64,000 nucleotides of DNA from a virus (IMGVR_UViG_2724679539_000005:12292-76291), one strand, 5' to 3'. Numbered from the stretch's first letter, positions 1-10,868 are shown. Notes: generated by a model from the letters alone, not told the origin. Made by a program: numbers and translations.

Positions 1-1
1 A

Positions 2-1840
2 GCCGCAATTCAGTCTCTACAGCAGAAGTTAGCGGCAAAACCATCAACCGCACAAGATGTTGGTGAGTTCGTTGGACAAGCAGCGCCATTTGTTAGTGGT
101 GGTGGGATTATTTCTCAGGTTCCCAAAGGGGCGGCAAGACTGGCTGCCGCCGCAGGGCTTGGTGCTGGAGAAGGGGCTATTGTAGCCAATGGAACAAATA
201 GCGATGTTGCTTCCGGCGCTGCTATTGGCGCTGTGGCTGGCCCTGTAGCCGAACTTGCTGGCCCTGCAATTAATAAAATAGCTGGGAAATTAACCAAGAA
301 GAATGTTTCTTCGATTCCAGATATTGAGGGGATTACTCCTGCCGAAGAGAAAATTCGTAAGTTATCTGCACAAGGCAACCCAAATCTTGCCTCTTCGCTT
401 GAAGGGCTAGATCTAAAACCTCAGAAAGAAATTGTTGAGGCTGCAAATAGGCTTCATGTTGATTCAGTTCTTCCTTCTCATTTATCAGGAAATGAGCAAT
501 ACCAAGCTGTAGAGCAAGCCCTAAAGTCACGGACAGGATCAGCGTTAAAAGCTCAAGAAGATAAAGCAATAAGCGAATTAGCCTCTAGTGCTGGCAAGAT
601 AATCGATGATGTTGCTGGTGCGCCAGATGCGTTAGCTATGAGCGAAAAATATATTTATCAGATAAATAGTAGAATGGAAGCACTAAAAAACCGTAGTGAT
701 CAGTTATATAAACGTGTTGATTCCGCTCTATCACCAAGAACAAAAGTCGAAGCAAATAACACAAGCACTATGCTGGAAAAAATCGCTGATGATTTAGGAG
801 GGTGGGATAATCTTGACCCAATAGAAAAGCGAGTTTTTACAGCAATAAACCCCGGACCAGATAGCATCCTAACGTATGCAAATTTAAACAGGCAAAGGCG
901 TTTAGTTGGTGATGCCCTAAATAAAAAGCAGGGGCCATACAAAGATGCTGATAAAGAAACGCTATCAAGACTATATGGAGCTTTAGCTGAAGACCAAAAA
1001 TCTGTCTTATCCAATACTGGATACTTGCGAGATTTCGAAGTCGCACAACGCCTTGTAGCTATGAGAAAAAACTTAGAAAGGCAAATGGTAAATCTTCGCG
1101 GGAAAACACTTAATGGGGATATAGCGTATAAAGTAACGAATTCTCTTCAATCTATGGCAAAAGGTGATGCGAGAGGGTTTCGTGAGATTATGCAAAATAC
1201 TCCATCAAGAACATTGCGAAGGGAGCTAGTAGGAACAGCATTAAGAGATATGCTTTCCTCTGGGAAGCGTGGGGCCGACTTTAATCCATCTGGCTTTGCA
1301 GATTGGTGGCAAAACTTGCAACACAGTGGACAGCTAAAGACTTTGGCTGAACATTTGCCAAAAGAAACAATGAGCGGACTATATGATGTATACAAAGTTG
1401 CCAGAGCAATAAAAAATGCTAAAGCGCATGAAATATCTACTGGTAAGCTGAATGAGTTTGTAAACAGATTTAATCGGGTAACAGCTCCATACGAACTAGC
1501 AGCAAAACACATTCAAAAAATAGGCACGATGGTAGGCGCTCATTTTGGATCGCTTGGAGCCATTGCTGGGGCTGATATTGGAGCAAGATTGGCGAGTAAA
1601 GCTCGATTAGCTGGTGGAGCAGGGGCGGCTGATGCTGCGGATAAATTAATTGCCTCGCCAGCCTTCCAGAGCGCAGTAAAAAATCTACACGGAAAAGCGC
1701 CTGGGCACATTGTTGATTCACGTATCAGGCGCTCCCCTCAATGGAAGAGTTTTTTTAACTCTCTTCCTGAACAGGAAAAACGGACCATCGCCAGACTGGG
1801 CATCATTACTTGGCTATCTAATGATCCAGATAATGACTAG
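2..1840 (+). CDS. C-terminal part (>=612 aa) of a large Gly/Ala-rich protein of unknown function; 5' end lies outside the window
   Basis: Frame is open from position 2 to the TAG at 1838-1840; the track's first Met is at 233. Gly/Ala-rich stretches near both ends. No family recognised. Confidence 0.5.
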   Translation, partial: AAIQSLQQKLAAKPSTAQDVGEFVGQAAPFVSGGGIISQVPKGAARLAAAAGLGAGEGAIVANGTNSDVASGAAIGAVAGPVAELAGPAINKIAGKLTKKNVSSIPDIEGITPAEEKIRKLSAQGNPNLASSLEGLDLKPQKEIVEAANRLHVDSVLPSHLSGNEQYQAVEQALKSRTGSALKAQEDKAISELASSAGKIIDDVAGAPDALAMSEKYIYQINSRMEALKNRSDQLYKRVDSALSPRTKVEANNTSTMLEKIADDLGGWDNLDPIEKRVFTAINPGPDSILTYANLNRQRRLVGDALNKKQGPYKDADKETLSRLYGALAEDQKSVLSNTGYLRDFEVAQRLVAMRKNLERQMVNLRGKTLNGDIAYKVTNSLQSMAKGDARGFREIMQNTPSRTLRRELVGTALRDMLSSGKRGADFNPSGFADWWQNLQHSGQLKTLAEHLPKETMSGLYDVYKVARAIKNAKAHEISTGKLNEFVNRFNRVTAPYELAAKHIQKIGTMVGAHFGSLGAIAGADIGARLASKARLAGGAGAADAADKLIASPAFQSAVKNLHGKAPGHIVDSRIRRSPQWKSFFNSLPEQEKRTIARLGIITWLSNDPDND

Positions 1841-1859
1841 TGAATGGCCACGGATGGCC

Positions 1860-2285
1860 TCAATCTTTATTCTTTGAAATAGAGTCATTGATCTTTTCGA
1901 AACACCAATGAAATCCACAAAAGAGAGCTACACCAATATAACAATACAAAACTATCAACCACCTTTCAGTGTCCGAAGGGTAAAAAACATCAATTACATA
2001 AGCAACACCAATTGGTATTAATGCTAGTAATAACATCGACACAGGACGTACAAACTTCTGAACTATATCAATTTTATAGAACCACAAGGCGGTATGTTTA
2101 ATGATATAAGTAAAGATGGCTGCGCCAATAATGGCAAAAAACACCATCGATAAAGTCGGGTATAACTTTGCGACAATTAAACCCAACAAAATAATTATAA
2201 CTGCCTGCCCCCTCACACCAACCCTCCCTTTAGCTTTGTTTAGAATGGCAATCATCATATATCCAAGACATGGCATTTGGTACAT
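1860..2285 (-). CDS. small integral membrane protein (about 3-4 TM helices); start uncertain
   Basis: Track ORF 1860-2474; the hydrophobic body starts at internal Met codons (2255-2285). Convergent with and immediately downstream of the large ORF. Confidence 0.4.
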   Translation of the reverse strand: MYQMPCLGYMMIAILNKAKGRVGVRGQAVIIILLGLIVAKLYPTLSMVFFAIIGAAIFTYIIKHTALWFYKIDIVQKFVRPVSMLLLALIPIGVAYVIDVFYPSDTERWLIVLYCYIGVALFCGFHWCFEKINDSISKNKD

Positions 2286-2408
2286 AGCTTGGGTCGGGAT
2301 TTCAAATCCGCCCCCGTTGATGGGGTCGTTACAGTACGCGCATATCCGCTTTATGTGAAACAGGAAGATTTTTCTGATATCACTGCCACAGCAAAACACC
2401 AATTTCGT

Positions 2409-2710
2409 GACCAGTACGCGCGCGAGGGGTATCAGTTGCAAAATTTTTTGCAACTGCGTCCGACCAGTACGCACACGATGGCGGGGGATACCATGAAACT
2501 GTTCTCTACACGAGACAGAGTGGTGGTGATGTGTTGATTATCGGCGTATATGCGCACAGGACGCGCTATGACGATGTTTTATGCGGGTACACCAATCACA
2601 TGTATCTGGTGTGATAAATCGCGTTACATGACCTCTCATGTTGTGCTGGTGGTTATCACGACGTTCTGAATCTGGCTTTTGTCTGATATTTTGCGACAAG
2701 TACGCGCGCG
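2409..2710. repeat. three copies of the 16-bp motif GAC(C/A)AGTACGC(G/A)C(G/A)CG plus a 24-bp perfect palindrome; a fourth motif copy lies at 5410-5427
   Basis: Motif at 2409-2424, 2462-2477, 2695-2710 and 5410-5427. Palindrome CAGTTGCAAAATTTTTTGCAACTG at 2433-2456. Confidence 0.5.
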
Positions 2711-3047
2711 TAACATCGAAATTATCGGATGGCGTATGTTGCTGGCAAGATAAAGTCGGCGTAATACAAAGGCGTTACTTGATAGCAGCAAGATTACAAC
2801 AATGGTTGTTGAATTTGAGCGATGTAAGGAATTGATTTAGGGAGGCGCTGATGGCTAAAAAGTTCCACTACCAGCGGATGAATGCGCCAGCGATGGCCGT
2901 TTGGTAGTAAAAGAGGAGCCATTCCTCAATCAGTTGAATACATTATGCCAACTAAATGGGTGGGGGCACTGTGTGGGTATTCAGCGGTGACGGTATTTTT
3001 TAAGCCAAGGACTATCCGTAGCAGGGGGACTCATTTTGAAATATTTA

Positions 3048-3485
3048 TCATATGTAACTTATTATTTTAGATAAAGATTTCCAGTTAAAGAAAAAAGTTA
3101 TCATTGATATAATCAAATATGCCCCTGCGAGTAGCAGGGCATAATAATCCAGAGGCAGATTGCTGACAACAGGGGCAAACATCGAGATCATTGCTAATAG
3201 GCAGGCTGTGATCAGCGTAGTTCCTGTATCAAAAAGCCCCTCAATAATGCCTTTTAGTACTCCGTTACTTTTTAGAGCGCCTACAATTCCCTTTGAACTA
3301 TCAAAGCTACTTAGCATGGTGACTGATGCCAAAACAAAACCAAAGAGAACTCCAGAAATAGTTGAAAGAGCACCAGCAGCCGAAATGACAGCATTGTGAT
3401 CTAGGTCGTGTAAAAAATGGGCACCAGCAATAGCCATAGCTAGAGCAAACAATGACTTGGCAGCAAACAATTTCCGAGAACTCAT
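3048..3485 (-). CDS. small multi-pass membrane protein (145 aa), second gene of a two-gene cassette
   Basis: About four hydrophobic helices; starts 12 bp after the stop of the upstream 361-aa ORF on the same strand; AT-rich. Confidence 0.6.
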   Translation of the reverse strand: MSSRKLFAAKSLFALAMAIAGAHFLHDLDHNAVISAAGALSTISGVLFGFVLASVTMLSSFDSSKGIVGALKSNGVLKGIIEGLFDTGTTLITACLLAMISMFAPVVSNLPLDYYALLLAGAYLIISMITFFFNWKSLSKIISYI

Positions 3486-3497
3486 AATGTATTCCTG

Positions 3498-4583
3498 TTA
3501 CGTTTGACTAACCAAATAGTACTGGGTTAGATACCTAAGGTTGTCATTCTTTGCTTGTAGCATAGCATTTTTAACGTCAGTATCGGTCGGATACCCATCT
3601 GCTTGGATAGGCACCATCTTCTTTACCGTAAGAACTTCGTCTACAAGACTTTTCTTCTTTTTATCGCCCTGAGCAACAACATTTGCTTTCTCAAAAGTTA
3701 AACGACCATCACCACCAGGGAACTTTTCTAGCATCTCCTTAAGGCTTTTTTTAACGTCATCCTCAAGCCATCCCTTTGCTTTTCTTTTTAATGGAGAATG
3801 TCCGCGTAACGAAATAGTCAGGTGGCTTGAACTGGTGCCTCTGATCATCTCAATCATCTGATTCGCGAACATTCCATCGAGTTGATACTGTGCGGCATTG
3901 AAGTTTCTTGGGATGGCCACAGAAATCTCGCAGCTTCTTAGATTGGATCCAGTTTCGAGTAGTTCTTTGATGCTTTCTTCTTTCCAAATGGCTTCAAAAG
4001 AAACAGGGACTCCGCGATCACTGGAGTTGAAAAGAAGGAAGGCTAAGTCACTATGGCGTGGACCTAAATGATTTAAAGACAATACTAGAATGTCTGTCTG
4101 AGGATAATAAATAAAGTATGTACGTTCTGAAAGAGTCTTTGCCCCGGCTAGAGGGATTTTCTCTTCCACCCACTCTTTATCTGTAATATATGCCAGTGTT
4201 GCGCTTTTTCTTCTTCGAGACATGAATCCGAAGTAGGAGCCATCCTCGGGTGAGATGTCTAGAAAATGAATTTTAAGTTCTCTTTCACCAAAGTCTGCAT
4301 AGTGGGTCATCTTGAAGTCTTTAGAACACCGATCATACAGATTTTTAAAGGCCTCTGCGGTTAACCCCTTGTTACTAGTGCGAATATTCTCAGAGCTTGT
4401 GTAAAAGCCCACCCTTACAGATTTCAAACTTTGATCTTTTGGTGCCACAGTCATTTGAGCTCCATTGTACTCTGCGATAGTTTTTGCACACCTTGAAATC
4501 AAAATCTCCATGTCAGTCACGAGAAAATAACTATGGATGAAACCCATCAAAGGCATTGAATACAGGTGGCTTTTGAGAATCAT
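3498..4583 (-). CDS. hypothetical cytoplasmic protein (361 aa), first gene of the two-gene cassette
   Basis: Long uninterrupted ORF with no recognisable motif; AT-rich codon usage unlike the flanking DNA; followed directly by the membrane-protein gene. Confidence 0.65.
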   Translation of the reverse strand: MILKSHLYSMPLMGFIHSYFLVTDMEILISRCAKTIAEYNGAQMTVAPKDQSLKSVRVGFYTSSENIRTSNKGLTAEAFKNLYDRCSKDFKMTHYADFGERELKIHFLDISPEDGSYFGFMSRRRKSATLAYITDKEWVEEKIPLAGAKTLSERTYFIYYPQTDILVLSLNHLGPRHSDLAFLLFNSSDRGVPVSFEAIWKEESIKELLETGSNLRSCEISVAIPRNFNAAQYQLDGMFANQMIEMIRGTSSSHLTISLRGHSPLKRKAKGWLEDDVKKSLKEMLEKFPGGDGRLTFEKANVVAQGDKKKKSLVDEVLTVKKMVPIQADGYPTDTDVKNAMLQAKNDNLRYLTQYYLVSQT

Positions 4584-4934
4584 CCTAACCTGGTGACGGT
4601 GGTTCGCATATCCTGATGGATGATCAGTGATTAATCAATGCGCCAAGCAGATGTGTCTATGTGTTTGTTAATCATTGCATGACAGTAGATCGACATGGGA
4701 GATCACGTTATATAGTTGAATTGTTAGGATATCCATGCACCGATCAACTGACTAGGCTGATGTGCTTTTTAGCAGGTGCCATATAGTAGTTAGGCGGTTC
4801 TGTGAAATGATTACTGTTCCAGCATAACTGCGGCATAAAGCGGTGCTATATAAGCTATTTGCTGGCGGATTTAGTCTTCACCGTTAATATATGTAGTGAC
4901 TATTTGACAGAGTGTTAGTTCACGGACACTTTTT

Positions 4935-5043
4935 GTTGGTTCAAAATGAGTTGATGTTGGTTCAATATTTTAGAAAAAACACAATAAAAACAACGCTCTT
5001 TACAAATTGAACCAACTGAACCAACTGAACCAACTGAACCAAC
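4935..5043. repeat. iteron-like 9-bp repeats TGAACCAAC: two inverted copies and four perfect tandem copies
   Basis: GTTGGTTCA at 4935-4943 and 4958-4966; (TGAACCAAC)x4 at 5008-5043. Lies in the divergent intergenic region between the 361-aa cassette and the PerC-like gene. Confidence 0.6.
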
Positions 5044-5079
5044 ACCTTTTTGCTTATCTATATAATCTGAGAGGCAGAA

Positions 5080-5361
5080 ATGATAAGGGACAGGAAAGCT
5101 GAAGAGCTGGAGTCAAAAGGGCTATACCGGAGAGCTGCCGCACGATGGATGGAAGTCATGCTGTTATGCACCGAGGACGATGATCGGGAATGGATAAAGC
5201 GCCGCCGTGAAACGTGTCTGGAGAACGTGAAGCGCCCGCCCGTGAAGGTTGAGGAATTTGGCGACCTGCATAAAGCTGTTACCGAAACGCAACACCGCAT
5301 GGGGATAGCGCAACCGAACGGTAACGCCTTCCGGTTAAATGGCGGCAAGAGGCAAAGGTAG
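5080..5361 (+). CDS. PerC-like small transcriptional activator (93 aa)
   Basis: Size and N-terminal pattern (KAEELE..GLYRRAA.RW.EV) recalled as PerC/Pch family; not verified by search. Confidence 0.45.
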   Translation: MIRDRKAEELESKGLYRRAAARWMEVMLLCTEDDDREWIKRRRETCLENVKRPPVKVEEFGDLHKAVTETQHRMGIAQPNGNAFRLNGGKRQR

Positions 5362-5658
5362 ACCACCAGAGGGAAATCATCCTCTGGCTGGCGGTTTCTG
5401 GTATTTCGGGACAAGTACGCGCACGCGTAGCACCCAATCGGTGAGGAAATAGCGGCGACCTGAATGGTCAAAATCACAACGCAGCTATCCCCGTAAGCAT
5501 CGCTTAACGGAATAGCAGTAACCTGAATCCAGTGGGGAGGGGGTAGTCAAATCTCTACAGGCCTGACTATCCGGGACTGCCCGCCCCATCGTTTTTTTAT
5601 ACCCGCGAAAAATGAAATTTAATCCGGGCGTGTTTCATCCTTCCAGAGGGTATGACGT

Positions 5659-5844
5659 ATGGCACCACGCGAAATAGCCTTATTGACCATCGCCAAACTT
5701 GAGCACGGAGGCCACCAGCTTACACAGGCAGATCAACGGGAGATAGAACGATCAGTTAATGCCGATATAGCCCGGCGCGACAGGTTCCGCGAAATGATGC
5801 GAGCACCTGCCTACCAGTGGAAGAAGCCAGCGCCGCGCAGGTAG
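5659..5844 (+). CDS. hypothetical small protein (61 aa)
   Basis: ORF with a charged/basic C-terminus; no family recognised. Confidence 0.3.
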   Translation: MAPREIALLTIAKLEHGGHQLTQADQREIERSVNADIARRDRFREMMRAPAYQWKKPAPRR

Positions 5845-5964
5845 ATATGGGATTATTCCACATGTAACTTATGCGTATTAAGCAAATTTCCTTTATTCAC
5901 CTTTACAGAATTGTGAGTACGTCAGTATCGTTATCCTTCCGATTCGCATTTATTCAGGATTTGC

Positions 5965-6507
5965 ATGTACCAGCTAAAGATAACCATCCGAGACAGCAAA
6001 CCACCTATATGGCGGCGTGTGCTGGTTCCAGAGCAAATCCCCTTTAGTAAACTTCATGCCGTGATCCAGTTAGCTTTTGGCTGGAATGACGAACACCTGT
6101 ATATGTTCGAGAAAGGGCGTAAAGGTGATCCAGGTAGCGAGTATCGCGTATGGGGTGAGGATGAAAGCATGGGTAACGCGGCAATCACGCCACTATGGGC
6201 GGCGCTCCAGAATGAGGGTGACAAGCTGGTTTACACGTATGACTTTGGCGACTGGTGGGATTGCGTCATTGTGCTGGAGAAGCAAACACACGATACGAGT
6301 AATCAGCCCATTAGCTGCCTGCGTGGGAAAGGCACCACCCCGGCGGAAAACTCAGGCGGCTTGCATGGTTACAATGAATTGCTATTACAGGCCAGAGAGT
6401 CTGATAATCCTGAGCAGGCCGAGATCCACAATTTCCTGATGCTGGATATTGAACGCCGGGTTTACGACCTGAGCCGCATCAACGACAGATTGCAGGCTAT
6501 TAACTGA
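5965..6507 (+). CDS. pRiA4b ORF-3-like family protein (180 aa)
   Basis: N-terminal pattern IxIT(I)RDSKPPIWRR..VP..F..LH..IQ.AFGW...HLY.F recalled as the PF07929-like family. Confidence 0.5.
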   Translation: MYQLKITIRDSKPPIWRRVLVPEQIPFSKLHAVIQLAFGWNDEHLYMFEKGRKGDPGSEYRVWGEDESMGNAAITPLWAALQNEGDKLVYTYDFGDWWDCVIVLEKQTHDTSNQPISCLRGKGTTPAENSGGLHGYNELLLQARESDNPEQAEIHNFLMLDIERRVYDLSRINDRLQAIN

Positions 6508-6859
6508 CCCGCATGTATTCACCTGATATTGCGTTATCAGCGCCGCCAGTATCGCGCATAACAGCACAATGACCGGGTAAACCGTAACGCACGACCGTTG
6601 CGTTAGTCTCACCGCCGCGCCGTATCTGGCGCGATTCATACACTGTCACCCGCTCAAGCAGTCCACCAGCAACCATGCTTTCCAGTGTGCGCCGGGTTGA
6701 TTCGAGCTGGTGACGCTTATCGAACGACACCATGCCATGAAGCAGGTAGGCCACACCCGACACATCGAACGGCGGCGCACCAATCTCACCAGTCACCCAT
6801 TCGAGGTTATCCGGTTCAAAGTAGCTAAGTATCTCTTTTTTGCGGCTGGTCATTCTCAT
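6500..6859 (-). CDS. hypothetical protein (119 aa), possible winged-helix fold
   Basis: ORF convergent with the preceding gene, overlapping by 8 bp. Confidence 0.35.
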   Translation of the reverse strand: MRMTSRKKEILSYFEPDNLEWVTGEIGAPPFDVSGVAYLLHGMVSFDKRHQLESTRRTLESMVAGGLLERVTVYESRQIRRGGETNATVVRYGLPGHCAVMRDTGGADNAISGEYMRVS

Positions 6860-7060
6860 GGCTGGCTGATTCCTTATTGTGGGATAGCACTATCATACAA
6901 TAAGTGGGTTAAAGGGAGAGCGTTACCGCCTGATATGCTGTATGAATAACAACCAAATTTCAGGGGCGGAAAAAGATATGGGGGTACTTTTGGGGGTATC
7001 TATAAAAAATGAACAATAAAAAAGGCAACAAAAACAAAGCTTATCGCCTATGTGTATTGT

Positions 7061-7077
7061 TCCTATTATCGCACCAT
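7061..7077 (+). other. att core, copy 1 (thrW 3'-end-like TCCTATTATCGCACCAT), next to the integrase 3' end
   Basis: 17-nt match to the tRNA-Thr(CGU) 3' end as recalled; the same core recurs at 48847-48863 and 62056-62072, each followed by an AAATCAATAA-like flank. Confidence 0.6.
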
Positions 7078-7090
7078 CTAAATCAATAAG

Positions 7091-8251
7091 TTACCTCGCA
7101 TTTAAGTAAACTACGTTCTCCTCTTGTGCCGTATTTGTGCCATTGCGACTTATAATCGCATCGATTTTGCTCGCGTGCTCGGTGAGATGCCCAGCTGAAA
7201 GGTGGGCGTATCTTTGAACCATTTCGAGAGTTTCCCATCCTCCCATCTCTTTAAGTGCAAGAAGAGAGACACCGGACTGAACCAGCCAGCTTGCCCAGGT
7301 ATGCCTCAGGTCATGGAAGCGGAAGTTGCTAATGCCTGCCCGCTTTAACGCTCCCTTCCATGCCTTGTTGCTGTCGGTTCTCATCTTCCTTACCGCTGCT
7401 GTTTTTGTTCCGTCGCTTCGGTAGGCAGGTTTGGTGTGGACAAATACCCATCTCTTATGGAGCCCCTGCTGTTTTCTTAATATCTGGCATGCGGTTTCGT
7501 TAAGAGGAACTCCGATCGCATTGCCAGCTTTTGTTTCATCAGGGTGCATCCATGCCATTTTCTTATCCAGATCGACCTGTGACCACTCAAGGTCTGTAAC
7601 GTTGGAACGACGAAGGCCTGTCGTGATTGCAAACATGACCACAGGGAAGAAATGAGGAGCAATTTCTGCAAACAGGCGCTTCGATTCCTCCTCTGTAAGC
7701 CATCTGATTCGTCCATTCTTAACGCGTGGTGTTGATATTTTGGGCGCCCTGTCAAGCCATCCCCATTCAACAGCCATATTGAGAATAGCGCGAAGTATTG
7801 CCAGATGCCGCGTCTTCGTTCCTTTGCTTGCCAGCTTTGGTTTATACTCCGGCACTGGCTTGCCAAGCCGCAAACACCTATCCCGGCTCATCTCCCAGTT
7901 CAGGCGATGGCGGCGGTTTTCCATCCCGTCTACCGCCTCCATTATTTTTTCTGTTGTTATGTCAGAGAGAATGGTTTCTCTGAAGTGCAACATCCAGAAC
8001 GATATAATGCTCTTGTCATCATCAATGGACTTCTTATCCGATTTCTCACGCAGCCACCGTATGCAGGCTTCCTTGAATAGCTTTTTCGGTGATTCCCCGA
8101 GATTTTTTACTCTCCACGCTTCTGCTTTCAGACGATCGTGAAGTTCTTGCGCTTGCCTCTTGTCCGATGTTTCAAGAGAGCGTCTAACTCTTGATCCATC
8201 TGGCGCGACGAAATCGCAGTGCCATGTGCCACCGCGCAGTTTGATTGACAT
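7091..8251 (-). CDS. int: tyrosine integrase (P4/CP4-type)
   Basis: C-terminal catalytic region with [13 protein letters not shown] and the conserved Tyr region (VQRYAHL); 386 aa; adjacent to the att core. Confidence 0.9.
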   Translation of the reverse strand: MSIKLRGGTWHCDFVAPDGSRVRRSLETSDKRQAQELHDRLKAEAWRVKNLGESPKKLFKEACIRWLREKSDKKSIDDDKSIISFWMLHFRETILSDITTEKIMEAVDGMENRRHRLNWEMSRDRCLRLGKPVPEYKPKLASKGTKTRHLAILRAILNMAVEWGWLDRAPKISTPRVKNGRIRWLTEEESKRLFAEIAPHFFPVVMFAITTGLRRSNVTDLEWSQVDLDKKMAWMHPDETKAGNAIGVPLNETACQILRKQQGLHKRWVFVHTKPAYRSDGTKTAAVRKMRTDSNKAWKGALKRAGISNFRFHDLRHTWASWLVQSGVSLLALKEMGGWETLEMVQRYAHLSAGHLTEHASKIDAIISRNGTNTAQEENVVYLNAR

Positions 8252-9186: not shown

Positions 9187-9405
9187 TCACCGTTCCTTAA
9201 AGAGGCCGTTTAACATGCCGATCGCCAGGCTTAAATGAGTCGGTGTGAATCCCATCAGCGTTACCGTTTCGCGGTGCTTCTTCAGTACGCTACGGCAAAT
9301 GTCATCGACGTTTTTATCCGGAAACTGCTGTCTGGCTTTTTTGATTTCAGAATTAGCCTGACGGGCAATACTGCGAAGGGCGTTTTCTTGCTGAGGTGTC
9401 ATTGA
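9187..9405 (-). CDS. hypothetical small early protein
   Basis: ORF trimmed to an internal Met; sits between the dam and TraR-like genes. Confidence 0.3.
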   Translation of the reverse strand, partial: SMTPQQENALRSIARQANSEIKKARQQFPDKNVDDICRSVLKKHRETVTLMGFTPTHLSLAIGMLNGLFKER

Positions 9406-9478
9406 ACAAGTCCCATGTCGGCAAGCATAAGCACACAGAATATGAAGCCCGCTGCCAGAAAAATGCATTCTGTGGTTG

Positions 9479-10036
9479 TCATGCAGCCTCCCGACGGGCA
9501 AGAATCCTTGAGCCGAACGCCATCAACTCTCCACGATCAACGGTCGTAAAGTGGCAGTGTGTACGGGGATATGGGTGCCAGATAATGAGCATCGAGCCTT
9601 TATTATTTCCACTGACGGGTTTCCCGGTGAGTGGGTTAATAAATGCCAGTCGTCCTGCCGTGATGAATCTGACCTCACTGGCGGTTTGTATCGCTTCATG
9701 AAACCATCCGACAGACGTGTCAGCAGGCAATAACATTACACATCCCACACTACTGAATTTGTTTTCAGTGGCTGCCTTTTTAACAAAAGGGGAAATATTG
9801 CTGTATGGTGGATTCAGCCAGACATAACCAGAGGCATATCCCATTGCTTCAGGCCATGAAGTGGTTAATGTGTTCTGCTCCTGTGAGATAAAAAGCCGAC
9901 ATAGTCGGTTTTTTTCACTGGCTGCAGCATCAAGTTGAAAAACGAACTCTGCATTAAGCGCAGCAAAAATCTCTGGTGGTGTGCACCAGCTGTCGCGATG
10001 TTCTGCAGGAGTATTGCTTCCGGTGAAATCAGTCAT
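9479..10036 (-). CDS. phage DNA N6-adenine methyltransferase
   Basis: Motifs WCTPPEIF and NPPY (WLNPPYS) characteristic of the phage Dam methyltransferase family. Confidence 0.8.
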   Translation of the reverse strand: MTDFTGSNTPAEHRDSWCTPPEIFAALNAEFVFQLDAAASEKNRLCRLFISQEQNTLTTSWPEAMGYASGYVWLNPPYSNISPFVKKAATENKFSSVGCVMLLPADTSVGWFHEAIQTASEVRFITAGRLAFINPLTGKPVSGNNKGSMLIIWHPYPRTHCHFTTVDRGELMAFGSRILARREAA

Positions 10037-10187
10037 ACAGCCCCCCGTTTATTATTTATCTCCTCAGCCAGCCGCTGGGCTTTCAGTGGATTTCGGATAA
10101 CAGAAAGGCCGGGAAATACACAGCCTCGCTTTGTAACGGAGTAGACGAAAGTGATCGCGCCTACCCGGATATTATCGTGAGTATGCT

Positions 10188-10868
10188 TCATCGCCATTGC
10201 TCCCCAAATACAAAACCAATTTCAGCCAGTGCCTCGTCCATTTTTTCGATGAACTCCGGCACCATCTCGTCAAAACTCGCCATGTACTTTTCATCCCGCT
10301 CAACCACGACATAATGCAGGCCTTCACGCTTCATTCGCGGGTCATAGTTGGCAAAGTACCAGGCATCTTTTCGCGTCACCCACATGCTGTACTGCACCTG
10401 GGCCATGTAAGCCGACTTTATGGCCTCGAAACCACCGAGCCGGAATTTCATGAAATCCCGGGAGGTAAACGGGCATTTCAGTTCAAGGCCGTTGCCATCA
10501 CTGCATAAACCATCTGGAGAGCAGGCGGTACGCATACTTTCGTCGCGATAGATGATCGGGGATTCAGTAACATTCACGCCGGAAGTAAACTCAAACAGGG
10601 CCCTGGCGTCGTTCTCGTACTGTTTTCCCCAGGCCAGCGCCTTAGCATTAACTTCCGGAGCCACACCGGTGCAAACCTCAGCCAGCAGGGTGTGGAAGTA
10701 GGACATTTTCATGTCAGGCCACTTCTTTCCTGAGCGGGGCTTTGCTATCACATTGTGAACTTCTGAAGCGGTGATGACGCCGAGCCGTAATTTGTGCCAT
10801 GCATCATCCCCCTGTTCGACAGCTCTCACGTCGATCCCGGTACGCTGCAGTATAATGTCCGGTGTCAT
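10188..10868 (-). CDS. YqaJ-like viral recombinase-associated exonuclease
   Basis: 226 aa; N-terminal pattern ...[17 protein letters not shown]... typical of the YqaJ family; adjacent to recT. Confidence 0.75.

Follow-up and report, generated by a model that had tools for sequence, protein, structure and literature searches.

Positions 1-7076 of the window, which is the whole stretch of 64,000 nucleotides of DNA analysed here, are the right end of an integrative satellite of ~19 kb located at tRNA-Thr in Escherichia coli. The satellite carries a P4-type int, AlpA, the isrK/C4 immunity RNAs and a primase together with P22-type ejection proteins. Its tRNA-targeting integrase is the only recombinase encoded by these elements, and AlpA (PF05930) was found in all elements examined. 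A protein-pattern search with the ejection protein returned a single near-identical locus and no others, and a literature search found nothing on this satellite family or on a Vis/AlpA site resembling the motif described below. The features of the region are, by position:

1860-2285, minus strand: slot-1 cargo gene, encoding a multi-pass membrane protein (ORF list).
2212-2719, unstranded: block A, conserved and mostly non-coding, between two variable cargo slots (breakpoints and alignment).
2329-2341, plus strand: partial motif copy 0, TACAGTACGCGCA, with the core AGTACGCGC at 2333-2341 (core search).
2363-2383, plus strand: repeat-unit box 1, GGAAGATTTTTCTGATATCAC, the partner of copy 1 on its upstream side (sequence comparison).
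2402-2424, plus strand: motif copy 1 with its 5' extension, ATTTCGTGACCAGTACGCGCGCG (motif search).
2433-2456, unstranded: inverted repeat, CAGTTGCAAAA-TT-TTTTGCAACTG, with perfect 11-bp arms and a non-symmetric centre of 2 nt.
2462-2477, plus strand: motif copy 2, GACCAGTACGCACACG (motif search).
2682-2719, plus strand: motif copy 3 (2695-2710) with its flanks (motif search).
2720-4933, minus strand: slot-2 cargo with two genes (3048-3485 and 3498-4583), replaced by other genes in relatives.
4934-5361, plus strand: PerC promoter region (GTTGGTTCA / GAACCAACT repeats) and PerC-family gene (5080-5361; PHROG and annotation matches).
5397-5434, plus strand: motif copy 4 (5410-5425) with its flanks, 49 nt past the PerC stop (motif search).
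5529-5635, plus strand: cos-like region just downstream of copy 4, outside the repeat family (prophage comparison).
7061-7076, plus strand: attR core, TCCTATTATCGCACCA, a copy of the tRNA-Thr 3' end (attL/attR comparison of L001 and the window).

Block A breaks off from its relatives at 2212 or 2291 on the left and at 2719 on the right. Its left 75 bp (2212-2285) encode the N-terminus that the minus-strand slot-1 genes have in common, and copies 0-3 lie in the remaining ~430-500-bp non-coding block, with variable cargo on either side. Of 5426 E. coli genomes, 545 contain positions 2300-2730 at 95-99% identity, and translations of block A matched nothing in Pfam, including the Ash domain (PF10554). 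The slot-1 protein of the window has a weak Bax1-I-like match (PF01027, E = 4e-5, under the curated cut-off); L002, L004, L005 and L351 hold other genes in this slot, still with common first residues and upstream DNA. An isrK-like leader on the minus strand before the slot-1 gene was rejected, being suggested by one tblastn match (E = 2e-4) with an unsupportive Rfam model. The slot-2 gene pair belongs to PHROG 8552 and 7651, has no match in PADLOC and is present in 41 genomes, each time within this satellite element. To its right, positions 4934-5163 are kept in all relatives, and the PerC region is the right anchor of slot 2.

The 16-bp motif, GACMAGTACGCRCRCG, matches without mismatch at 2409, 2462, 2695 and 5410, throughout on the plus strand. 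These are exactly the four copies claimed by an earlier reading of the sequence only; 0.15 matches with ≤2 mismatches are expected by chance, and four were matched in 0 of 100 shuffles. The fifth, partial copy 0 was found by a search with the 9-nt core AGTACGCRC, is kept in every related locus of the alignment and corresponds to ACAGTACGCGCA in the second immunity-region copy of L358. Likeness among the copies runs past 16 bp: copies 3 and 4 agree at 25/29 nt (TCTGRTATTTYGSGACAAGTACGCGC...), and copies 3 and 4 and the copy 4' of L003 each follow a degenerate version of box 1. Copy 3 with its flanks, a region that includes the palindrome TACGCGCGCGTA, is the right end of block A and the last sequence common to all cargo classes. 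Copy 2 is the most variable (5/16 columns differ among 12 sequences). Elements at the dinD site have a diverged copy 4' (CAATTTCACGAGCAATACGCGCGCG) with unalignable surroundings, so that copies 4 and 4' sit in mutually unalignable DNA. A search of the whole element for a reverse-complement copy, allowing ≤3 mismatches, found none.

The non-coding nature of the motif region, stated by that reading, is supported: ORFs across it are unsupported, and most genomes annotate nothing there. A small peptide ORF after copy 2 was dismissed for its frameshifting indel in L010 and L114. RNA structure around the copies gave z-scores of -0.9 to +1.6 on both strands, a significant fold being limited to the inverted repeat (z = -2.85), and Rfam models run against 1500-7200 at E ≤ 5 found no RNA family. 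Prediction of sigma-70 promoters and terminators called none at the copies or the inverted repeat; promoters built by hand there were weak and were discarded. The DNA after copy 1 agrees with DUF4222 gene 3' ends at 16/17 nt (E = 0.05-0.2), which is too weak to use. The inverted repeat at 2433-2456 had been described as a perfect 24-bp palindrome; it is present, and 22 of its 24 positions are symmetric (self-match 91.7%). Its centre varies between TT, AA and AG, the arm changes A2453G and G2456A are uncompensated, and it is missing from L126 and L127. No intrinsic terminator was called at 2433-2456 on either strand, the stem being followed by CGTCCG and ATACCC and by no U-tract. This repeat between copies 1 and 2 is a putative dispensable hairpin or operator-like element.

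About 10% of the complete E. coli genomes contain the satellite family, and motif matches in E. coli are limited to its unannotated intergenic DNA, at 1-5 places per genome; the rest of the 64-kb window holds no further match. The motif is thus confined to this element family rather than scattered over the host genome, and a host-wide interspersed repeat of the REP or MITE kind was rejected, none of the matches being dispersed over the chromosome. As a multi-copy feature the motif is absent from 185,579 species-representative genomes, and among 50,697 phage records nothing matched block A or the region of copies 1-2, even at E ≤ 10. Scans with the 16-mer (viral contigs) and with 22-23-mers (species genomes and metagenomes) gave mostly single chance matches; the truly related ones are L010, L042, L092, L114 and L119 among viral contigs and seven metagenome loci.

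A counterpart of the motif lies in the immunity region. In related E. coli, Citrobacter and Klebsiella satellites, 1-3 co-oriented copies of the motif core AGTACGCGCRCG stand just upstream of the immunity promoter. In L355-L360 and L092 the shared sequence measures 20-23 nt and its 1-3 copies end 73-148 nt before isrK (RF01394) and C4 (RF01695); across genera the core has a fixed position ~73-88 nt before the isrK 5' end. Across genera the core hardly varies at this native site, whereas the spacers from copy to copy cannot be aligned, which argues for a molecular function, most simply protein binding. Homology to the window comprises 20-23-nt matches for copies 1, 3 and 4 and the 21-nt box 1, in the same order: the copy 1 region matches the immunity-region copies of L356-L360 over 20-23 nt, copy 4 agrees with that of L357 at 21/22 positions of a 22-nt match, and box 1 is 20/21 identical to the spacer between the two copies of L358, a Citrobacter satellite. 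Given this homology to arrays upstream of the isrK/C4 promoter, the window copies look like displaced copies of an immunity-region cis element. The isrK and C4 RNA models matched nothing inside block A in the Rfam search (1500-7200, E ≤ 5), and block A, having no Pfam or Rfam match, corresponds to no more than what precedes the immunity promoter. In its own immunity region the window element has a degenerate copy (TTCGTCCACGCGCGTGAC), its accessory copies being intact. A target of C4/CI RNA of the seqA/seqC type was rejected because the motif lies upstream of the promoter and has no reverse-complement copy (≤3 mismatches), and because matches to the c4-a1b1 model fall within the isrK leader, not the motif. 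In the immunity region the motif is translated as a near-invariant 'FETSTR' of Ash/Icd-like ORFs; it is mis-annotated there as the N-terminus of "Ash" proteins. The accessible text of PMC13586616 describes core-gene pseudogenes of P4-like satellites as 'typically Ash' and places about half of all their pseudogenes in defence loci.

Conservation of the core across genera at a fixed position before isrK makes putative binding of a regulator to the motif plausible. An unlikely but serious alternative goes further: the copies would be binding sites for a regulator of the satellite or helper phage, candidates including an AlpA/Vis-like HTH protein and the adjoining conserved 143-aa protein, and the protein acting upstream of the immunity promoter would, in addition, regulate or insulate the accessory genes (slot-1 gene, cargo and PerC), with recombination incidental. 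Direct-repeat arrays are the usual binding targets of excisionase/AlpA-type proteins, and AlpA occurs in every element examined. The core is nearly invariant over three genera with completely different spacers, copies 3 and 4 contain the dyad TACGCG(N0-2)CGCGTA, and the minus-strand slot-1 gene has copies 0-2 and the inverted repeat upstream of it. The distance from the end of the last copy to the isrK 5' end is exactly 73 nt in four elements, as is typical of an upstream operator or an activator site; however, this spacing is not independent evidence because the intervening promoter DNA is itself homologous. Other observations also weigh against such a role: the window element has intact accessory copies but a degenerate immunity-region copy, conservation of copy 2 is poor, elements that otherwise look intact have a deletion of copies 1-2 or 1-3 (L127 and L126), and the copies hold no fixed position or orientation relative to their neighbour genes, which lie on either strand. 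No evidence linked the motif to PerC specifically.

Replication offers another reading, in which the copies would be iterons, with an ori-like array near the immunity region and block A as a crr-like counterpart, both bound by an alpha-type primase-helicase. The layout recalls P4, whose ori and crr hold the same short repeats several kb apart (NC_001609 annotation), and an A/T-rich inverted repeat does lie between the direct repeats of copies 1 and 2. This is nevertheless highly improbable. A different and typical iteron set, ACCTRTACCA, with 5 copies directly after the primase gene and inverted copies 1.1 kb further on (L001 10711-10814 and 11821-11919), already adjoins that gene. Identical motif copies accompany replicases that have only the N-terminal primase half in common, their helicase and C-terminal half being wholly different, as is also the case for L356 vs L360. 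Furthermore, the window family has no intact immunity-region array, and some elements have lost part of the block A array.

Comparison of related loci places exchange of DNA at the motif. Of 43 breakpoint classes, counted in 23 loci that are partly related by descent, 5 fall ≤10 bp from a motif edge, as against 0.6 expected from the 1.4% of sequence concerned (binomial p = 3e-4), and behind these lie at least five separate events that differ in copy and cargo. Copy 1 is an endpoint of deletions in both L126 and L127. L126 has a single hybrid copy with the upstream flank of copy 1 and the downstream flank of copy 3. In L127, copy 1 is joined to copy 2 by a 53-bp deletion that ends in copy 2, leaving the hybrid motif GACAAGTACGCGCACG, which shows that a crossover took place within the repeat. 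In slot 2, the two main cargo classes part 9-10 bp after copy 3. At copy 4', the 1.75-kb toxin cargo of L126 and L353 begins exactly at the 3' end and the 1.06-kb cargo of L351 and L352 stops 9 bp before it, so that L351 and L126 have only a 25-bp core in common between unrelated flanking DNA. Many breakpoints lie elsewhere than at the motif, cargo classes also diverging at ~+34, +45 and +180 bp after copy 3. Targeting of the motif by IS66 was rejected, since a second case (L092) proved to be the immunity region of another satellite and not an IS end; one IS insertion near the motif remains, 4 bp past copy 2 in L119. The sequence-only reading had offered remnants of a small repeat element or recombination sites as an explanation, and in substance this is borne out by the homology of the copies to the immunity-promoter array and by deletion and cargo-swap endpoints at the motif.

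The clustering has a sceptical explanation, according to which the copies would be inert relics of duplicated immunity DNA and the apparent enrichment would arise from a small, related sample and from alignments that end at repeats. Within E. coli, variable columns amount to 6-31% in motif copies vs 11% elsewhere in block A; motif columns are therefore no better conserved than the rest, and the motif does not stand out within the block. The loci lack independence, and small remnants are common in satellite hotspots in the accessible text of PMC13586616. Yet the enrichment (p = 3e-4) stems from at least five different events, the L127 hybrid reflects a crossover inside the repeat, and 545 genomes retain block A at 95-99% identity with variable neighbours on both sides. 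Inert relics are improbable.

Whether a dedicated cassette-exchange system comparable to integron attC or Xer acts at the copies, a recombinase supplied in trans moving cargo at the 25-bp core, bears on the same breakpoints. The flanks of copy 4' are shuffled independently around this core, the copies are all co-oriented, crossovers occur inside the motif and breakpoints are enriched there. However, the two-gene cassette is flanked by copies 3 and 4, as had been proposed, in the literal sense only: the strain-variable segment is 2720-4933, and its right edge falls in the PerC promoter repeats rather than at copy 4. The anticipated motif pairs bounding cargo in relatives give way to a single motif-copy edge per variable slot, the right edges of slots 2 and 3 being the PerC promoter repeats and att-proximal DNA, respectively, and other breakpoints lie nearby. 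The motif also has neither the inverted-repeat-plus-spacer architecture of tyrosine-recombinase core sites nor that of attC, and other satellites have it in the immunity region, which is not a cargo position. There is no sign of a dedicated site-specific recombinase at the motif, and the one integrase has an unrelated att core, TCCTATTATCG(G)CACCA. Such a system is very improbable, and the 25-bp core ATTTYNNGASMARTACGCRCRCG is a correspondingly doubtful candidate for the recognition site of a recombination activity of satellite, helper phage or host that would move accessory cassettes. If it were one, it would reveal an integron-like cassette system native to the satellite, with the immunity-region array as its primary site.

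Two further identities were rejected. The motif is not an att-core mimic or an integrase core or arm site, given the unrelated att core and the position of the copies outside the att arms; the window copies lie 1.6-4.7 kb from attR, directly after whose core a lambdoid prophage starts. Nor is it a lambda-type cosB or cosN: GCGGCGACCT at 5452-5461 is lambda-like but alone not significant, and copies 1-3 lie 3 kb away from the cos-like region. That region (5529-5635) is ~85% identical to the intergenic region between HNH and small-terminase (P27 family) genes of prophages, with a perfect 48-nt stretch, and HNH/P27-type matches make up most of the 1288 best hits in the 80-90% identity band.

On balance, the motif copies are probably portable short homologies that drive cargo exchange and derive from the immunity-control array. 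The motif would be the conserved core of a ~25-55-bp unit made of a T-rich box GATTTTTCTGAYATCAC, a variable spacer and TTTNNNGAN-AGTACGCGCRCG. Its native site would be the control region that, in P4-related satellites, directly precedes the PLE-type immunity promoter, which would drive an isrK-like leader and the C4/CI antisense RNA. Block A, with copies 0-3, would be a decayed partial copy of the immunity array moved to the accessory-gene region, where one further copy (4 or 4') would complete a set placed in the same orientation at slot edges. Recombination between copies within an element would lose the DNA between them; recombination of a copy with one beside different cargo in another element would replace the cargo, the second crossover falling in other shared sequence such as the PerC promoter, att-proximal DNA or another copy. 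We infer that exchange is driven by homology of ~16-25 bp, through host RecA or a single-strand-annealing recombinase of a phage, and not by a dedicated recombinase. Lengths of 16-25 bp are at or below the usual minimum for efficient RecA recombination, which counts against homology as the driver. The alternating purine-pyrimidine CG tract may make the motif spots fragile. The accessory copies may also still perform their native function, putatively protein binding, and recombination would then be a by-product.

Phage satellites are major carriers of anti-phage and accessory genes, whose turnover is very fast and whose physical mediator is poorly defined. The motif provides a specific, searchable marker of swap points, traceable to the satellite's own immunity-control region, and can be used to locate slot edges and new cargo, for instance the uncharacterised gene pair at 3048-4583. 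It raises the questions of whether a repeat of ~16-25 bp suffices for cargo exchange, and with which recombinase, and whether a regulator bound at the immunity region would also see the cargo slots. Moreover, 'Ash/Icd-like protein' annotations in these elements largely translate non-coding features, namely the motif array together with the promoter and the RNAs isrK and C4.

Several known systems resemble this arrangement. Defence hotspots of P4-like satellites, in the accessible text of PMC9122126 and PMC13586616, share int, AlpA, 'ash' (the isrK/C4 immunity region) and an alpha-type primase with the present family, along with fast cargo swaps between conserved anchors and ash-like fragments in the cargo area. 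That text notes pseudogenes and describes no specific repeated motif at slot edges or breakpoints within one. Unlike P4-like satellites, the family is without psu, delta and sid and has P22-type ejection genes and a cos-like site of HNH/P27-terminase phages. P4 ori/crr type-1 iterons similarly place one repeat in two arrays kb apart, near the immunity/early region and downstream of the primase; they are 8-bp repeats (NC_001609) of unrelated sequence, whereas here separate iterons adjoin the primase and the motif does not co-vary with replicase type. Integron attC and Xer module sites are likewise short, co-oriented and situated between cassettes, with flanks shuffled around a common core. In contrast to attC, no inverted-repeat structure (R''/L''-L'/R') exists in or around the copies and there is no integron integrase; in contrast to both, the motif stands on one side of each cargo segment, breakpoints extend beyond it, and it is also found in a cargo-free regulatory region.

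Another parallel is found in mosaic phage genomes, where Juhala (in 2000), Clark (2001) and Arbiol (2010) reportedly described short boundary or linker sequences at module junctions. Examples are the lambdoid phages HK620 and HK97 and the promoter-stem-loop 'PeSL' cassettes of T4-type phages. Such linkers are thought to give phage or host recombinases homology for module swaps and may also regulate. Like the motif, they are tens of bp conserved between unrelated modules, at junctions where the genes of relatives differ, and the present repeat behaves as a module-boundary repeat in that its core is common to elements with unrelated flanks and breakpoints fall at it above chance. Unlike phage linkers, the motif resides in a satellite, is present in several same-orientation copies per accessory region and can be traced to a source, namely the array that precedes the P4-type immunity promoter.

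Pattern searches of the window recover the 16-bp motif GACMAGTACGCRCRCG without mismatch at 2409, 2462, 2695 and 5410 (copies 1 to 4), always on the plus strand, as the sequence-only reading had reported. With up to two mismatches allowed, chance would give 0.15 matches, and none of the shuffles reached four. The core AGTACGCRC reveals a fifth, partial copy at 2333-2341, also on the plus strand. The likeness reaches beyond the 16 bp: copies 3 and 4 have 25 of 29 nucleotides in common, including a T-rich 5' part whose ATTTCGT is present at copy 1 too, and a box (GGAAGATTTTTCTGATATCAC, box 1) lies 20 bp further upstream of the 5' part of copy 1. The copies contain an alternating purine-pyrimidine CG tract of 11-15 nt. 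Such tracts are prone to adopt Z-DNA.

The right end of an integrative element of about 19 kb at tRNA-Thr, beside proA (locus L001), occupies window 1-7076; attL and attR of this element have TCCTATTATCG(G)CACCA in common. Its genes are ordered integrase, AlpA-type HTH (PF05930), antirepressor, DUF4222, 'ash' ORF, primase-helicase and P22-type ejection proteins, followed by an accessory region that includes a PerC-family gene and a pRiA4b-ORF3 gene. Under the 'ash' ORF Rfam places two RNAs, an isrK-type leader and an antisense RNA of C4/CI type. They constitute the immunity module of phage P4, which makes the element a P4-related satellite, one without psu, delta and sid. In place of these capsid-size genes stand homologues of P22-type ejection proteins (DUF2824, gp17-like, gp20-like and gp16-like). 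The upstream part of the PLE-type immunity promoter, GAGTCCATAAA, is present twice just ahead of the ejection-protein operon, which suggests a second promoter of this type. ACCTRTACCA occurs as five direct copies immediately 3' of the primase-helicase gene and two inverted copies 1.1 kb downstream, likely the replication origin of the satellite and its crr-like partner.

Features of the satellite and related loci (window positions unless a locus is named)
233-1840; L001 12596-16041; L004 2873-8041; L126 574-4945: P22-type ejection-protein homologues
3048-4583, minus strand: two-gene cargo pair
4935-4965 and 5002-5042: PerC promoter repeats
L001 4341-4544: AlpA-type HTH protein, beside a protein of 143 aa
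L001 5990-7057; L092 10641-11399; L355-L360 about 10000-10600: 'ash' or 'Icd-like' ORFs
L001 10711-10814 and 11821-11919: ACCTRTACCA copies
L001 12228-12260: two copies of GAGTCCATAAA

Downstream of copy 4, window 5529-5635 is about 85% identical to the intergenic region between the HNH endonuclease and P27-family small terminase genes of prophages, including a perfect 48-nt stretch, GGACTGCCCGCCCCATCGTTTTTTTATACCCGCGAAAAATGAAATTTAA. The match extends to prophages of over a thousand E. coli genomes, and this intergenic region is where the cos sites of HK97-like phages lie; a helper cos site is probably present here in the satellite. The satellite's gene set with ejection proteins is unusual, and an odd fit with a cos-like site of the kind that HNH/P27-terminase phages have. 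The DNA from copy 4 to the cos-like region holds an 18-nt direct repeat, AATAGCGGCGACCTGAAT (5448-5465) and AATAGCAGTAACCTGAAT (5511-5528), the first unit of which contains GCGGCGACCT, matching 10 of 12 nt of the lambda cohesive-end sequence, a match that is not significant alone. A lambdoid prophage begins directly after the attR copy of the tRNA-Thr 3' end (window 7061-8251; integrase 7091-8251, minus strand), and thus satellite and prophage are integrated in tandem at the same site. In one genome (L125 4795-5117) a truncated lambdoid prophage RusA gene is fused to block A of the satellite (described below) at about window 2603, a deletion joining tandem prophage to satellite accessory region.

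Of 5426 complete E. coli genomes, 545 contain window 2300-2730 at 95-99% identity, either at tRNA-Thr or beside dinD. Pairwise comparison resolves three parts: block A, which is mostly non-coding, holds the partial copy and copies 1 to 3 and extends from 2212 or 2291 to 2719; a variable segment at 2720-4933 (slot 2); and a conserved segment at 4934-5163, comprising the PerC promoter and the 5' half of the PerC gene. In other elements slot 2 holds small minus-strand pairs, an Abi-family gene or an HTH pair; the window's pair (PHROG 8552 and PHROG 7651) is found in 41 genomes. The smaller of its two products (145 aa) has predicted membrane segments; the other has 361 aa. All 41 E. coli genomes carry the pair in this satellite slot. 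PADLOC and Pfam gave it no assignment, and it is a candidate for an uncharacterised defence or exclusion system. In a second variable slot, left of block A (slot 1), minus-strand genes differ; their first residues and upstream DNA are shared and form the left part of block A. A third slot follows PerC, and dinD-site elements have a diverged counterpart of copy 4 (copy 4', CAATTTCACGAGCAATACGCGCGCG) in DNA that otherwise fails to align with the window. A 9-bp repeat (GAACCAACT) stands four times in tandem directly ahead of the -10 region of PerC, and inverted copies (GTTGGTTCA), two to four in number, lie farther upstream; in related elements the right edge of slot 2 falls within these repeats.

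Block A also holds the 24-bp sequence at 2433-2456 that was first described as a perfect palindrome. The inverted repeat is real but imperfect, with 11-bp arms around a non-symmetric TT centre (22 of 24 positions symmetric). In relatives the arms are conserved and the centre is TT, AA or AG. Neither of two arm changes is compensated; one of them would still allow wobble pairing, in plus-strand RNA only. The repeat is missing from L126 and L127, two related loci. It may serve the slot-1 gene on the minus strand as an operator, or it may act as a hairpin.

The motif recurs in the immunity region of other elements. The 'ash' ORF of L092, a viral contig from a different host (GC 52.5%), contains an identical copy of 22 nt. 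Homologues of the N-terminus of this ORF show a near-invariant 'FETSTR', the motif in translation, with a hypervariable stretch after it. Six contigs, L355-L360, whose sources include E. coli, Citrobacter and Klebsiella, carry one to three co-oriented copies of the core AGTACGCGCRCG. Successive copies start 26-117 bp apart, and their spacers cannot be aligned; from the end of the last copy to isrK there are 73-148 nt, which puts that copy just upstream of a PLE-type promoter. P4 itself has no motif copy, and in the window's family the immunity-region copy is degenerate. Because block A and the immunity arrays have both the motif and box 1, in the same order, block A is best viewed as a copy of the immunity upstream array that has been displaced and has decayed. 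In keeping with this, PMC13586616 remarks that the core-gene pseudogenes found in P4-like satellites are 'typically Ash'. That gene callers translate the motif in differing frames (FETSTR or FRDQYAR) supports its being a non-coding element. The 'ash family' or 'Icd-like' ORFs cover the motif array, the PLE-type promoter, the isrK-type leader (RF01394) and the C4/CI antisense RNA (RF01695). Since their conserved protein motifs (FETSTR, ESIKKGLP and YGYSAPAKSGAGIGV) are translations of those non-coding features, the family looks largely like an annotation artefact.

Invariance of the core across genera favours a molecular function at this native site, and the main rival reading is that the accessory-region copies still bind a protein presumed to recognise the immunity-region array. 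Among E. coli elements, however, conservation of the motif does not exceed that of the remainder of block A, some elements have lost copies, and the geometry of copies relative to neighbouring genes is not consistent.

The best-supported reading of the comparisons is that the copies act as portable short homologies. The one copy in L126 has the upstream flank of copy 1 and the downstream flank of copy 3, and in L127 copy 1 is joined to copy 2 through a hybrid motif. The two main slot-2 cargo classes part 9-10 bp beyond copy 3. At copy 4', a 1.75-kb cargo with a Doc-family toxin begins exactly at the 3' end in L126 and L353, and a 1.06-kb cargo stops 9 bp ahead in L351 and L352; L351 and L126 have 25 bp in common there and nothing more. 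One viral contig, L119, carries an insertion sequence 4 bp beyond copy 2 (9244-9755; transposase with HTH_Tnp_1, end reading GTAAGCG). When 23 loci were compared all against all, the breakpoints fell into 43 classes. Five of these are at most 10 bp from the edge of a motif, a zone that makes up 1.4% of the sequence (p = 3e-4). Breakpoints are not confined to the motif: cargo classes also part about 34, 45 and 180 bp after copy 3, and the right edges of slots are non-motif sequences, namely the GTTGGTTCA repeats and att-proximal DNA. Taken with the homology to immunity upstream arrays, these breakpoints leave the initial suggestion of a repeat remnant or recombination site largely right.

Recombination between two copies would delete the intervening DNA. 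If a copy in one element recombined with one that adjoins different cargo in another element, the cargo would be replaced, given a second crossover in another shared sequence. We infer that exchange is homology-driven, with a recombinase presumably involved and the CG tracts perhaps contributing. This reading and protein binding are mutually compatible. Known-RNA and structure searches argue against a known or structured RNA, and the lack of a consensus match against a promoter or terminator. An att-core mimic is rejected by the core of attL and attR. A C4/CI RNA target is likewise rejected: the c4-a1b1 model matches within the isrK leader, and a search for complementary copies of the motif found none. 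A replication iteron is unlikely, given the separate ACCTRTACCA set after the primase gene and identical motifs beside replicases unrelated in their helicase and C-terminal halves. Searches of genome collections found the motif neither dispersed in host genomes nor in multiple copies in other phyla.

The findings demonstrate no new machinery. They provide a concrete, testable handle on satellite cargo exchange and expose an annotation artefact in the 'ash' ORFs. The motif copies are the same kind of feature as the module-boundary repeats of mosaic mobile elements.
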